The position numbers and the translations under genes were made by a program. A stretch of 64,000 nt of DNA, from the NCBI GenBank assembly GCA_958009085.1, contig OY253681.1:496001-560000 (forward strand), read 5' to 3'. Numbering within the stretch: the first letter of the stretch is position 1; each line of letters opens with the position of its first letter. Below are positions 56,412 to 61,986 of the stretch, piece by piece. A model generated the notes under the pieces. That model was not told where the DNA came from. It did no database searches and saw nothing but the letters and a program-made list of their open reading frames with translations. The DNA is from Protoeuglena noctilucae (lineage: Eukaryota).

Positions 56412-56917
56412 ATGGCGTCTGGCAGCGGGGTGGACCCCGTGGAGCTTGTGAATGAGCTCACATCCTTCGCCACCACTGTCCCTGACGAGCTGACACAATA
56501 CGTCCTGGGAACGGTGGGCGTGGAGCTTCAGGTGGGTGGGTGGGTCCTCAGCGTGGTCACTCACACCGTGTGCTACTTGGCGCGGTCACTCACACAGTGT
56601 GGGCCAGTGCTGTGAACGTCAGCGCGCACATGCGAGGTCTTCTGACTCTGCCCGCGCAGGACCCGGGATTGGTCCGCCTGGTGTCCCTGGCGGCCCAGCG
56701 GTTCCTCTTCGTGGTCATGAATGACACCCTGCAGCTTTGCAAGAGGCGGGTCAAGGCGGAAGAGCAGCGGGCGGCCAAGGCCAGGAAGCAAGGAGGGCAG
56801 ATGGCGGGGGAGTGGGCGCTGACGACCGAGGACCTGTCCAACGCTCTCAGGGAGCACGGCATCAACTACAAGCTGCCCCCCTACTTCCTCGACCGACAGG
56901 GCTCCGGGATGGTCTGA
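56412..56917 (+). CDS. TAF10: TFIID/SAGA subunit TAF10
   Basis: TTVPDELTQYVL..DPGLVRLVSLAAQRFL..NDTLQLCK..LTTEDLSNALREHGINYKLPPYF. Confidence 0.92.
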
Positions 56918-57196
56918 GGATGCATGGGCCTTCATGGGGGGGCGTGTCAGCCCTTGGAGTTGCTGACGAGGACGCTGATGTGCCGCTGGCCCGTCATAGC
57001 GCCACCTCGGGCCCACCGCCGCCTCATTCCCCGCCCCGCGTGCAAGCGCTGGAGTACAATTTTCGAATTGCGCAAAGAAGCTGGGGCTGCTAGCAAAGAT
57101 ACTTTGGCTTGGGTCAAGCTGCGAGATTCCAGCCCTTGGCCTCGAGGCTCACGCGTCGGCAGACGGCATTAGCCGTTGCCTACCAGAGCAGACGCG

Positions 57197-59982
57197 ATGA
57201 ATTCGCACTCCGGCGCGAGCGCGAGCCCGCTGCCGATCCGAAGTTTGAGCGCGTCGCATACCACGGCGCCCGGAGCGTCTCCCCCGTCGAGGTGGGCATA
57301 AAGCCAGGCGTGAGGTCTATATTGGCGTCGTAAATGAGGAAGGCGCCGCAGCAATTGATCTATATACTTCATAGGAAGTGTGTTTTGGCCTTGTGGTTCA
57401 AGGCGTGCACTTCGCGAGCGCGCAGAGGGGGCTCGCCGCCCACGCCGTGCCAGGGACCGGGGCAGGCGAAGGATGCGAGGTGCACCGAGGCGAAGAAGTT
57501 CTGGTCGAGGCTGCGTTTTGACCCGAATTTGAACGCATCCGACTTCACCGTCGGGTTCGCGGAATCTAGGGAGGAGCACGAGCGGCGTTCGGGAAAGGTG
57601 TGGAACGCGCTCCCGAGCCAGACGAATGAGAGCCGGGGCCGTGGCGGGCGGGCGTGCACGTGTGCGTTCTAATCCGTGGCATTTGACACGGGAGACCCAC
57701 AGGGAAGGCAGACAGCCCATGTTCTGCGGTAACTCCGACGTCTTCGCAGGAAGCGTGGTCGGCGCGGCTGCGGCACGTGGCGCGTGAGCTCCCGTACCAC
57801 GACTTCGCGGCACGATTCCCCGACGCGGTGCCTTTCCATCGGATTCTGTACTTCAAGGAACGCGGCGTGGTGGTATGGGAGCAGAGAGCGTTGCGGCGCG
57901 TGGATCTGCCGCCTGGAGGTGCGCGGAAGGGTCTGTACCTCGCCGGACACGCTGTGGGTGTAGACGAGCAGGCATCGCTGTGAGCCTCTTTGTGTTTCCC
58001 GCAGAGGCTGCATCGCTCGGCGTGTCCCCTCCTGCTTTCGGGTCATCTCCTCTGCACTCCGCCTCCTCCCCGGGGTGGGACGCTGCAAGAGTGTGCATGC
58101 CTGGCTACCTCATTCGGGCAGCGCCTGTGTGACAGCAGGGTGATACCCCCTCCTCCTCGCAGAGCCCCCAAACTCTCCAGCCCTTCTCACGCGTGGCCTC
58201 GCGACCCCGCCAGCTCCAGCTCGACCTGCCAGGACCGCGGCACCCCTCGGTCCCCGCCGGCGCCGGGCGGCCTCTCCTCCGCGTTCGGGGGGCTGTCCCT
58301 CGCGAGGACGCCGCCCTCCCGTGCCTCGTCTACCGTGGCTCATTCGCGGCACGTCTCTCTCCTCACGGACCCCTCCGAGGCGTGGGTAGATGGCCCCTCC
58401 CCGCCCCTCTCGTCAGACGGGGAGCTGTCCGCGGCTGAGGCGGACAAGGCGCCCGCGTGCCCCGAGCTCCCCGACGAGTGCTGGCTGCTGATCATGGAGC
58501 ACGTGGGCGTGCGAGAGCTGTGCGCCCTGGCACGCACATGCCAGGAGCTGCGAAGGCTCAGCGCCGACCGGTGAGTCCACGGGCGTGACTGCTGAGTCGC
58601 CGTCGACGGCTGACGTGGGGCAGTGGCCCTGCCCCTTGCGGCTGACTAAAGGCGGTTCCTCGCGCCCGTACCCAGGAGGCTGTGGCTGCGCTGCCACGAG
58701 CGCGTGACGGGCCAGTCGGGGGATCACATGGACACGCCGGCGCTCAAGCGCGCCTGCCGCAAGTCCGAGCTCCAGGTGGCGCGGTGGAGCGAGGCGCCGC
58801 TGGTGCAGTTCTCGGCGGGGTTCGCGGTCACGTCGGTCCTGCAGGTGGACGGCACGACGTGCGTGTCGGGGGACGGCACGCAGGTGCGGCTGTGGTCGCA
58901 CGCCACGGGGGAGCGCATCGCGACGCTCCCGGGGGGCCACGGGGCGCCCGTGACCAGCTTGACCTTCAACGACCACGTGGTGCTGACGGGCGATGCGGCC
59001 GGCACCGTCAAGCTCTGGACCATGGACGACCTGCGCCTCTGCCGGCAGCTCCGGGGCCACGAGGGCAGCGTCGTCGGGGCGGGCCTGGTGGGCGAGACGC
59101 CAGTGACGGCGTCGCAGGACGGCACGATCCGGTGGTGGGACACGAGCACGGGCCACGCCATCCTGGCCCTGGAGACGCACGGCGCGACCACGGCGATGGC
59201 CACGGACTTGGGCCGCCAGCGCATCGTCACGGCCGGCGACGTGGTCGAGGTCTGGGACGCCGCGGCGGGGGCCAGCGTGACGACGCTCCTCCCTAGTGCC
59301 GGCTCAGCCTCCTGCGTCGCGCTGGACTCCCGGCAGCAGAGCGACTTGCTCGTGGTGGGCGCGCATGGGGCGCTCGAGTTCTTCGACTGCCGCGCGGGGT
59401 CGTCCGTGGCCTCGCTCGCTGTGGGCGGTGGGGGACCCCCCGTGGGCGCCCTGCTGCATGGGTGGCGCCTGATGGCGGTGCCATGTGCCGCGAGCGACGT
59501 GCTCTTGTACGATGTGCGCGCCCTGGCCAGCCGGGGTGCGCCGGACGGGCCCCTCATGTCGCTGCGGGCCGAACATCGCGTGACGGCGTTCGCGCACGCG
59601 GCCAGCACGGTCGTGGCGGCGCACGAGGCCCCGCACCTCTGCACGGTGTGGGAGGTGCAGATGGCCTGGCAGCCGCAGCCCATCAAGCCAGCGGTGGGGC
59701 AGCCGACCTCGTGGAATGGACACCTCTACATTGAAGCTCAGGCCGGGTATGCGGGTTCTAGACCGGCGGGCACAGCGGCGGACGAGGACACGGACGAGGG
59801 CTGGCGGCGCAAGGTGAGGGGCAGGCAGCGCGGCCCCCTGCAGCCGGTGCGACGAGAGCCTCGGTCGCTCGTGTTAGCGGTGCTCAGAGAGCGACCGCTG
59901 GCCGCAGGAGCGCAAGGAGAGGAGGGCCGCGCGGAAAGTGTCCAAGCCTCAGAACAAGTACCCCAAGCGGCATGGGCGCTAG
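57197..59982 (+). CDS. MJ1316-like domain + F-box + WD40-repeat protein (7 exons inferred)
   Basis: The F-box (ELPDECWLLIMEHVGVRELCALARTCQELRRL) and WD40 repeats (GHGAPVTSL..TVKLW, GHEGSV..SQDGTIRWWD) are clear. The upstream exons encode KKFWSRLRFDPNLNASDFTVGF..ELPYHDF..AVPFHRILYFKERGVVVWEQR. All introns are GT-AG and phase-compatible. Confidence 0.78.
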
Positions 59983-60028
59983 AAAGACTAACTGGGAGAC
60001 CCAGCGCTGGCTGCTTGAAGGCGATCCT

Positions 60029-61986
60029 CTAGTCCTTCTCCTTCTTCTCCTTCTTCTCCTTCTTCTGCGAACGACCCGAGGGCGGGCGAGGTGGCGCAGC
60101 TGGCCCACGCAGCCCGGCGTGCGTGCAGGCATTGCATTGCATCACATCGCACCTCCTTCTTCTCCTTCTTTTCCTTCTTCTCCTTCTTGCTCTTCTTCGG
60201 CGTGCCCTCCTCCGACGGCGCCTCGAGCGCCGGGCTCCTCTCCCGCTTGGCAGCTGCCCCGTCGGCCGTCCCCGCCAGGTCCGGCATGGCCCGCAGGTAC
60301 TCCTTCGGCGTGCTGTCGTTCGGCCGGCCGTGCTTGTCCAGCTTGCCCTCCGCCATGAGCGCCTTCTTCTGCTGCGCCATGGGCCCCAGGCCCCACCGGC
60401 GCGGGTACGTGTCCCGGTCCATGATGACGCGCTTAATGCGGGCCACGCAGCCGTGGTCGCACGAGGCCATGCCCGCCGAGTTCATCTCGGCGATAGCCAT
60501 GGCCACGGCCTCCCCCTTGGTGGTGATGAGGACCACCTCGTCCCCCACCTCCACGCCGCTCTCGAAGCGCAGGAGGCCCGGGATCATGAGCTTGGCGCCG
60601 TAGCACAGGGCGTTGACCGTCGAGTCCTTGACGACGAGCCGCTTGAAGTTGGTCAGCAGCATCTCCAGCGGCATGATCACCCGGCGAAGGTAGGACTCGT
60701 CCTTGTAGTTGTCGTACAGCCACATGGCGTCCAGGAGGTCGTGCATCGTCACCATGTTGTCCTGCGCCACGCCGGCAGGGCCGCGTGTCAGGCGCGGGCG
60801 CCGGCCGTCGGGCGCTGCGGCTACTCGCCCCCCGCGGCCCCTCACCTTCTCCCCCATGATGCCCGACCGCACACGCCGCAGCTCCTGCATGTGCCCCCCG
60901 ACGCCGAGCACGAGGCCCAGGTGGACGCACAGCGTCCGGATGTAGGTCCCCGCCTCGCACGACACCCAGAAGACCGCGAGGTGTCGGTCGTCGTCGTACT
61001 CGATGAGCTTTGACTCGTAGATGGTGCGGATGCGGAGCTGGCGCTTGACGGCCGAGATGAGGGGTGGGCGCTGGAAGAGGGCGCCCGTCAGCTGCTGGAG
61101 AGCGCGAGACACCTTGACGGCCCCGCCCTCGACCTTGCCGTGCAGGCGCGCCACGCAGACGTACTCCTTGCCCGCCCCCTGCTGCGCCTTGACCAGGCGC
61201 GTGCCCCGCTCGATGCACACGATGAGGTTCCCCGTGACCTTGGGGTCGAGCGTCCCCGAGTGACCCGTCTTCTCCACGCGCAGCATGCGCTTGATCCACG
61301 CGACGACCTCGTGCGACGAAGGGTTGGCGGGCTTGTCCAGGTTGATGCACCCATACATCATGTGCTCGCGCAGCGGGCGCTTCAACGGCGTAAAGCCCGA
61401 TGCGATCGGAGTATAACGCGCCGTCCGCACGTGCAGCTTGTCATAGTTCTGCGCGGGGTGCGACGGGCCCATCGCGCACGGGCAGGCAGGTGGCTGTGCG
61501 GCGCGCTCGGCGGACCGCTGCGCGAGATGATCTGCATACTGCATGCATCGATCTCACCTTCAGCAGCAGGGGCCATTTGGACGTGTCCAGAGGGGGCGTC
61601 ACGTCCTCGGGCTTGATCACAAGCTCCCCGCCCTGCATGGCGGACAGCGTCGCGAGCACAAGGTCGTGCGGGGAGACGGCAGCGCCCTCAAACACTCCAT
61701 TACTCGCGCGAGCAGGAAAGCGAGGGCGACGGTGGGTACCGGCCTTCCCCCACGCGGGAGCGCGCAAGACGGCCGGCGCAGGGGACAGGCGATGCCCCCG
61801 GGCGGTCAGGGCCCCGCGCCGCAATCCAACGTACACACGAGCATCATGAATGAGAACAGGAGGAACCGGGAGTTGAAAACAGCGCATACGCAGGCCTGGG
61901 TCCGCTCGGAGAAAGAGGGAAGCTGCCCCGCCGATGAGGAAGGCCGCATGCCAGTGCGATTGGCTCACCTCCTTTGATTTCCCCAT
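60029..61986 (-). CDS. CBF5: H/ACA ribonucleoprotein pseudouridine synthase CBF5/dyskerin
   Basis: [66 protein letters not shown], a PUA domain and a KKE-repeat tail. Confidence 0.97.
60032..60200 (-). repeat. (AAGAAGGAG)n coding repeat, KKE tail of CBF5, split by an intron
   Basis: CTCCTTCTT-type units on the + strand at about 60034-60066 and 60152-60198. Confidence 0.85.

Follow-up and report, generated by a model that had tools for sequence, protein, structure and literature searches.

An MJ1316-like domain joined to a probable F-box/WD40 receptor in chlorophyte green algae, with a divergent family member in Protoeuglena noctilucae

We analyzed a gene at positions 57197-59982 (+ strand) of a 64,000-nucleotide (nt) stretch of the Protoeuglena noctilucae genome (contig OY253681.1, positions 496,001 to 560,000; hereafter the window, whose numbering is used throughout). 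It is highly probable that this region is one spliced gene encoding a protein of ~708 amino acids (aa) in which an MJ1316 domain is followed by a disordered Ser/Pro linker, an F-box/helix/WD40 propeller unit and a basic YPKR tail, and that it is a divergent member of a chlorophyte family. Judged from deposited sequences, the fusion is real, conserved and not unique to the window's genome, and among the known members of this family, which is conserved in chlorophyte green algae, the predicted protein has diverged furthest. We consider the fusion settled because most orthologues carry MJ1316, F-box and WD40 in one protein and because the spliced model aligns with them from end to end. A first-pass annotation, made from the letters of the window, had proposed the layout of MJ1316 domain, Ser/Pro linker, F-box, WD40 and basic tail in one gene, and Pfam matches, orthologues and collinear alignment all agree with it. 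The same annotation knew of no F-box-WD40 fusion of this domain; here it was mistaken, as the same architecture has been deposited for at least nine named chlorophycean species and several unnamed assemblies.

The fusion in chlorophyte algae

We used phmmer with exon 6 of the gene, which encodes the propeller, against 1.84 billion representative sequences and examined the best 150 of 87,569 matches. These included P0003, a 434-aa open reading frame (ORF)-style call of the window's own exon 6, and P0137, a protein of 858 aa that is 41% identical from just after the F-box. P0137 carries MJ1316 (27.4 bits), an F-box-like stretch, WD40 repeats and a basic tail ending ..RYPKRSTK. When P0137 was itself used as the query, 142 proteins were found at E<=1e-5, of which the top 15 (P0137 and P0153-P0166) form the family and the rest are bacterial multi-WD40 proteins. 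Named members come from Volvox africanus (Vafri_9114), V. reticuliferus, V. carteri (VOLCADRAFT_92304), Pleodorina starrii, Edaphochlamys debaryana, Chlamydomonas schloesseri (HYH02_009582), C. incerta, C. eustigma (CEUSTIGMA_g12130, P0163), Tetrabaena socialis, Gonium pectorale and Haematococcus lacustris; the others are unnamed transcript assemblies. The search was limited by protein length, and no member from C. reinhardtii was among the proteins listed. The named orthologues are labeled as hypothetical protein, F-box domain-containing protein, MJ1316-domain protein or Cdc4 (for Tetrabaena, "Cell division control protein 4"), and UniRef names the C. eustigma protein after its MJ1316 domain. 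No description of the fusion architecture was found in the searchable literature, which did not extend to the 2016 domain survey, and a search there for two of the orthologue locus tags found no mention of them.

A Pfam scan of the 15 members detected MJ1316 in 12 (E<=0.01; best E 4.7e-11), an F-box-like domain in 14 and WD40 in all 15. The MJ1316 match is particularly clear in P0162, where it reaches 42.4 bits against a cut-off of 26.3 (E 1.2e-10) and spans positions 4-74 of the 75-position profile. Alignment of the spliced window model with P0162 yields a single high-scoring segment pair (HSP) that pairs model residues 19-705 with 16-673 of 676 (E 9e-81), and a single HSP is likewise obtained with C. 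eustigma P0163 over model residues 8-572 (E 1e-78); identity over these full-length matches is 31-33%. Among the orthologues, 178 positions reach at least 90% identity, and the model retains 122 of them: MJ1316 accounts for 33 of 43, the F-box for 10 of 12, the linker helix with the propeller for 63 of 98 and the tail for four of five. The window's protein thus resembles the database orthologues in the order MJ1316, F-box, WD40 and YPKR tail, whereas it has the shortest linker, is the most divergent in sequence and lacks the Gly/Ala-rich insertions of the volvocine proteins. In a maximum-likelihood tree it has by far the longest branch (4.9 against a median of 0.61), indicating a distant member whose placement in the tree is unreliable. 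In the Tetrabaena model (P0164, 577 aa, labeled Cdc4), the third WD40 blade leads straight into the tail. We also considered matches to exon 6 in JGI metagenomes as a source for intron comparison, and these were set aside: 92 pattern matches reduced to three loci at 27-33% identity that encode unrelated WD40 proteins, and no orthologous locus was among them.

Exons, introns and flanking genes

Our model has seven exons which, joined by their coordinates in a script, give 2127 nt, or 708 codons plus a stop codon, with no internal stops. Exon 1 (57197-57291) opens with the ATG at 57197, encodes a Ser/Pro-rich N-terminus (aa 1-32) and ends at the donor AG|GTGGGC (57291/57292); its translation matched no Pfam family, and the peptide across the exon 1/2 junction agrees with the orthologue consensus GASPPxRGG in the multiple alignment. 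Exon 2 (57426-57597) carries the N-terminal half of MJ1316 (domain part ~57490-57597), and exon 3 (57750-57918) carries the family-specific loop and the C-terminal half (HRI...VVWE, domain part to ~57881). Exon 4 (58005-58074) is a provisional 70-nt Ser/Pro linker exon with the GT..CGCAG form at both sites. Exon 5 (58163-58570) continues the Ser/Pro-rich linker and then enters the F-box at ~58464-58570, which runs on into exon 6 (58676-59813); the latter contains the end of the F-box, the helical linker and the WD40 propeller (~58806-59663). Exon 7 (59908-59982) encodes the basic C-terminal tail ending ..YPKRHGR, followed by the stop codon. Base composition was evaluated in the model frame: in a window of 68% G+C, G+C at third codon positions (GC3) is 0.77-0.93 per exon (0.86 in exon 5 and 0.93 in exon 6), except for 0.65 in the 70-nt exon 4. 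Intron 1 (57292-57425, 134 nt) is about 0.52 G+C, and the other five introns are 86-152 nt long at 0.63-0.73. The frame of exon 5 is open from 57984 yet has no ATG upstream of the F-box, which, together with its coding-like GC3, provides sequence-internal weight for one gene.

RNA evidence came from contigs of four marine metatranscriptome runs of a single study, in which 20-46% of sampled words were present. The contigs listed (21 of 22) have no letter that differs from the window, indicating that the organism or a near-identical strain was present in those samples. Contig X1 contains the GT..AG joint 57597/57750, confirming the exon 2 donor (57597/57598) and the exon 3 acceptor (57749/57750) and with them the intron that splits the MJ1316 domain. 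Contig X4 contains the joint 58570/58676, inside the F-box, confirming the exon 5 donor. Two of the six introns are therefore seen in RNA. Contigs also cover exon 6 over 58693-59778 and leave 57846-58078 uncovered, a gap that is no evidence of absence. Taken together, introns 2 and 5 are supported by RNA and orthology and introns 1 and 6 by orthology; introns 3 and 4 have as their sole backing the need to join two domains that share one protein elsewhere.

The splice sites and peptides quoted in the first-pass annotation are all present and correct, and its remark that the ORF track breaks up the gene is matched by P0003, a prokaryote-style call that contains exon 6 alone. Its argument from compatible intron phases carries little weight. 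We counted GT..AG paths within 57870-58470 that use introns of 40-400 nt and connect the frame of exon 3 to that of exon 5 without a stop, and there are 50 with one intron and 4671 with two; as this is not above chance, we dropped phase compatibility as evidence for the linker introns. One alternative, a single intron at 57980-58162 (GTGAGC..CGCAG, with a good donor), likewise keeps the frame. Within intron 1 there is an ATG at 57334 in frame with exon 2, and the stretch 57334-57425 is AT-richer than the exons; were intron 1 retained, as seen in contig X3, translation could begin at this ATG instead, and the protein would lack the exon 1 peptide.

The gene lies between close neighbors. Upstream, 56663-56917 (+) is the last exon of a gene for the TFIID subunit TAF10 (PF03540, E 1.9e-14). 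RNA contigs from the 3' end of this gene extend to 57158-57170, leaving only ~30-40 nt to the ATG at 57197, except for one that continues to 57326. The genome is very compact, and read-through from the TAF10 gene into the F-box gene may occur. Downstream, a dyskerin/Cbf5 gene with DKCLD, TruB_N, TruB_C_2 and PUA domains (59988-61553, - strand) converges on the F-box gene; its KKE-repeat tail is encoded by CTTCTC-type repeats at ~60030-60066 and ~60155-60200, apparently with an intron in between. RNA contigs over 59717-60026 are collinear across intron 59814-59907 at depth up to 48. We considered these as evidence against the last intron of the F-box gene and rejected them as such, because this zone is the expected 3' untranslated region (UTR) of the converging dyskerin gene; intron 59814-59907 consequently has orthology as its one support. 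The depth of 15-48 over this zone suggests that, on the opposite strand, the dyskerin 3' UTR reaches into the final intron and exon of the F-box gene.

Domains and predicted structures

Exon translations were scanned singly with Pfam. Residues 22-51 of exon 2 match positions 4-33 of the 75-position MJ1316 profile PF04457 (17.2 bits, E 0.008), and residues 25-44 of exon 3 match positions 55-74 (23.6 bits, E 8.6e-5), so that two adjacent exons provide complementary, collinear halves of one profile. The second match contains PFHRILYFKERGVVVWE, which corresponds to P-x-H-R-I ... W-(D/E), a motif that we take to be the C-terminal signature of MJ1316; over 37 aligned rows its P, H, R, I, K and W hardly vary. 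The center of the domain is different. By ungapped Pfam match coordinates, the central segment reads G-F-A-E-S-R where MJ1316 proteins presumably have Y-x-D-R-F, such that D-R(F) would align to E-S/T, and a family loop, E-R-x-S-G-x-E-A-W-S-x-R, takes the place of profile positions 34-54. Over the 37 rows the loop is nearly invariant as R-x-S-G-x-x-A-W-S-x-R (window 57583-57597 and 57750-57776; residues 38-48 of the P0162 stretch), and we take its S-G...S spacing to be loosely like that of beta-TrCP degrons. Both an MJ1316 signature and a departure from it in the central segment had been recognized at first pass, and the Pfam matches to the two exons, the P0162 score of a true PF04457 relative and the unmatched positions 34-54 concur.

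The exon 2/3 junction falls within the family motif E-R-x-S-G-x-E-A-W-S. A profile search with the N-terminal domain returned 29 short proteins, mostly single-exon ORF fragments of other assemblies, and in such fragments the sequence from V-G-F/L..E-R-K-S-G-A-E-A-W-S to ..H-R-I-A-Y-F-K..V-W runs contiguously. The presence of an uninterrupted junction peptide in ORF fragments of other genomes provides independent support for the exon 2/3 join. An AlphaFold2 model of the domain, built from the alignment of 37 rows with P0162 residues 43-143 as the first row, has a predicted local distance difference test score (pLDDT) of 84.6 and consists of a helix, a long beta-hairpin, a short helix, a second hairpin (H-R-I, V-V-W) and a final helix; the R-x-S-G-x-x-A-W-S-x-R loop forms the less confident tip of the long hairpin. 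Fold searches with this model found no convincing relative (best Foldseek match in the PDB, E 0.2; best VIA-align Z 4.2 among 48161 chains), and the domain profile had no matches at E<=10 among PDB sequences, which says nothing on fold novelty.

The remainder of the protein is more familiar. Residues 101-135 of exon 5 match the F-box families PF00646 (28.2 bits, cut-off 20.5) and PF12937 (25.7 bits, cut-off 24.3), and the window's protein has Glu in place of an F-box Trp that the orthologues conserve (W297>E). Exon 6 matches 29 WD40/beta-propeller Pfam families, with PF00400 at 31.4 bits (cut-off 27). Among PDB sequences, the best natural match to the exon 6 propeller is FBXW7 (E 1.2e-26), followed by beta-TrCP/FBXW11 (5e-21 to 1e-20) and Cdc4 (1e-13). 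The exon 7 tail aligns with the orthologue tail ..KKQTRYPKRNTK, of which the family form is ..K-x-x-x-(Y/F)-P-K-R. This basic tail (window 59908-59979), ending (Y/F)-P-K-R-x-T-K, is conserved up to Volvox with K, P, K and R nearly invariant. No Pfam family covers the tail, which probably directs the protein to the nucleus or nucleolus or else contacts nucleic acid.

For structural comparison of the F-box, helix and propeller, the orthologue P0162 stood in for the window's spliced protein. Its whole-protein AlphaFold2 model (pLDDT 73.8) contains the N-terminal domain (residues 45-141), a disordered linker (142-189), F-box helices (194-237), a linker helix (247-265) and 28 strands (268-610), counted as seven blades, followed by a disordered tail. 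In a Foldseek search with this model, every one of the top 17 matches is an F-box/WD40 receptor bound to Skp1 or a construct of such a receptor, with FBXW11 first (6wnx_D, E 8.6e-27), then beta-TrCP, and with FBXW7 at 4.7e-23; Cdc4 comes after them, at rank 21 (9.5e-21). The F-box/linker/propeller part is therefore most like beta-TrCP/FBXW11, FBXW7 and Cdc4. With beta-TrCP/FBXW11, which provides the best structural matches (6wnx_D, 1p22, 6m90 and 6ttu), the algal family shares the F-box, the helical linker and the seven-bladed propeller, although identity in the structural alignment with the P0162 model is only 17-19%; beta-TrCP/FBXW11 lacks an MJ1316 domain, and the conserved basic C-terminal tail is an addition of the algal family. 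FBXW7/Cdc4 shares the F-box and WD40 layout, and FBXW7 is the closest natural PDB sequence to the window's propeller, whereas the N-terminal region differs and the 28 strands of the algal model contrast with the eight-bladed propellers of FBXW7 and Cdc4; with blade registers that differ in this way, comparing degron-binding residues through aligned sequences would be unreliable. FBXW7 and beta-TrCP also carry a D domain, which serves dimerization.

Alternatives and possible function

Several observations weigh against reading 57197-59982 as a single MJ1316-F-box-WD40 gene. Scanned as separate exons, each half of the window's MJ1316 domain scores below the Pfam gathering threshold of 26.3 bits, and profile positions 34-54 find no match in either, the family-specific loop standing there instead. 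MJ1316 was not seen in three of the 15 family members (Gonium P0160, Haematococcus P0165 and transcript P0166), none of which extends upstream of the F-box in the alignment; truncation of the gene models may be the reason, and the gaps in all three and in P0164 are likely annotation errors rather than real losses. The exact linker exons are not fixed, since in-frame GT..AG paths are abundant by chance, and introns 57919-58004 and 58075-58162, the sole link between MJ1316 and F-box, have no RNA support. Contig X2 (58079-58390, 312 nt, depth 3.8) is collinear and unspliced over 84 of the 88 nt of intron 58075-58162, and this read-through, if translated, would stop the MJ1316 frame at the TGA at 58130-58132. 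Finally, contig X3 (57000-57326) extends from the upstream gene through exon 1 and is unspliced for 35 nt past the exon 1 donor. The X2 contig with its read-through stop, the lack of an RNA joint that connects exon 3 to exon 5 and a 112-aa "complete" MJ1316-only ORF in one transcriptome (P0272) might be taken to indicate gene fission, with the MJ1316 exons (57197 to ~58132) encoding a small stand-alone protein and the F-box/WD40 part transcribed as a separate gene. We regard this as very improbable: the exon 5 frame is coding-like without offering an ATG before the F-box, both parts occur in one protein in 12 of 15 orthologues, the spliced model is collinear with orthologues through the linker, and X2 is a single contig at low depth in a metatranscriptome that may represent pre-mRNA or carried-over DNA. 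The unspliced X2 contig, the stop that the MJ1316 frame meets after 56 nt of retained intron and P0272 would also fit an arrangement in which both forms are made, with regulated retention of the linker intron yielding a ~187-aa MJ1316-only protein beside the full-length receptor, and such a short form could compete for ligand. This too seems unlikely, as it draws on one low-depth contig, contigs give no isoform ratios, degradation is the more likely fate of a transcript with an early stop, and P0272 may be a partial assembly.

A different kind of alternative accepts the fusion and proposes that the MJ1316-like domain has been repurposed, so that rather than reading RNA ends it serves as a protein-binding, dimerizing or autoregulatory module in the place occupied by the D domain in FBXW7/beta-TrCP. 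The unmatched profile positions 34-54, the nearly invariant family loop at the tip of a beta-hairpin with lower pLDDT, the alignment of the D-R(F) motif to E-S/T and the finding that Pfam scans of the window exons and the orthologues revealed no other RNA-repair domain in the protein all point in this direction, and the divergent domain center leaves room for another ligand or a protein partner. Against this, the part at profile positions 55-74 (P-x-H-R-I..K..W) and several basic residues are nearly invariant and would suit a phosphate or nucleic-acid ligand, and the Pfam match in P0162 extends over 4-74 of 75. We judge repurposing to be a possibility worth keeping in view, though not a probable one.

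Returning to the one-gene reading, established F-box/WD40 biology makes it likely that the window's protein serves an SCF (Skp1-Cullin-F-box) ubiquitin ligase as its substrate receptor; the F-box would dock on Skp1 and the top face of the propeller would hold the substrate. What the N-terminal domain contributes is more tentative. The MJ1316/DUF504/UPF0248 proteins (PF04457) share with the algal family a profile match over 4-74 of 75 in P0162 and over 4-33 and 55-74 in the window. Their partner elsewhere is an RNA-repair enzyme, whereas that of the algal family is a ubiquitin-ligase adaptor, and the algal domain differs further in the nearly invariant family-specific loop at its center. Eukaryotic MJ1316 fusions also include C12orf65-type release factors. 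Burroughs and Aravind 2019 (PMC6514570), citing two computational papers, describe the MJ1316 domain as one that recognizes 2'-3' cyclic ends of RNA and that occurs throughout eukaryotes in fusions with RNA-repair domains. In the searchable literature, we found no experiment on RNA binding by MJ1316 or on any family member. The conserved R, H-R and K together with the invariant loop would suit a phosphate-bearing ligand. The N-terminal domain might bind RNA, possibly at 2',3'-cyclic-phosphate ends, and either recruit the ligase to proteins that sit on cleaved RNA or make its activity depend on the state of the RNA; we put this forward with considerable doubt. An adaptor that connects cleaved RNA ends with ubiquitylation had already been suggested in the first-pass annotation.

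A more specific and more speculative proposal, which we think has a small chance of being correct, is that the family acts as an RNA-damage-sensing ubiquitin-ligase adaptor. Here MJ1316 would capture the 2',3'-cyclic-phosphate ends left by endonucleolytic cleavage, and the SCF would ubiquitylate proteins or ribosomes stuck on the broken RNA; possible sources of such ends would include tRNA splicing intermediates, IRE1-type or ribotoxin cuts and U6-type ends. The R-x-S-G-x-x-A-W-S-x-R hairpin loop might be the ligand-reading element, or it might lie as a degron-like flap in the beta-TrCP-like propeller until RNA binds. A complex prediction between the P0162 propeller (residues 245-615) and its MJ1316 domain (40-141), made without controls, gave a score of 0.00 and a mark of 0.34, which is no evidence either way on the flap idea.

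For the annotation of such genes the lesson is that ORF-based calls split the gene, and several of the deposited orthologue models may be truncated. The architecture is already in databases; what appears to stand out is an FBXW-type receptor with an unusual, conserved N-terminal domain that resembles an RNA-end reader, and whose function we infer. F-box/WD40 receptors are usually taken to be readers of protein degrons. If true, a conserved fusion to a predicted RNA 3'-end reader would be a direct physical link from RNA cleavage and repair to the ubiquitin system. Since close relatives of Chlamydomonas reinhardtii, as well as Volvox carteri, have members of the family, the idea is open to genetics and biochemistry, and work on the family would give the first experimental handle on MJ1316 ligands.

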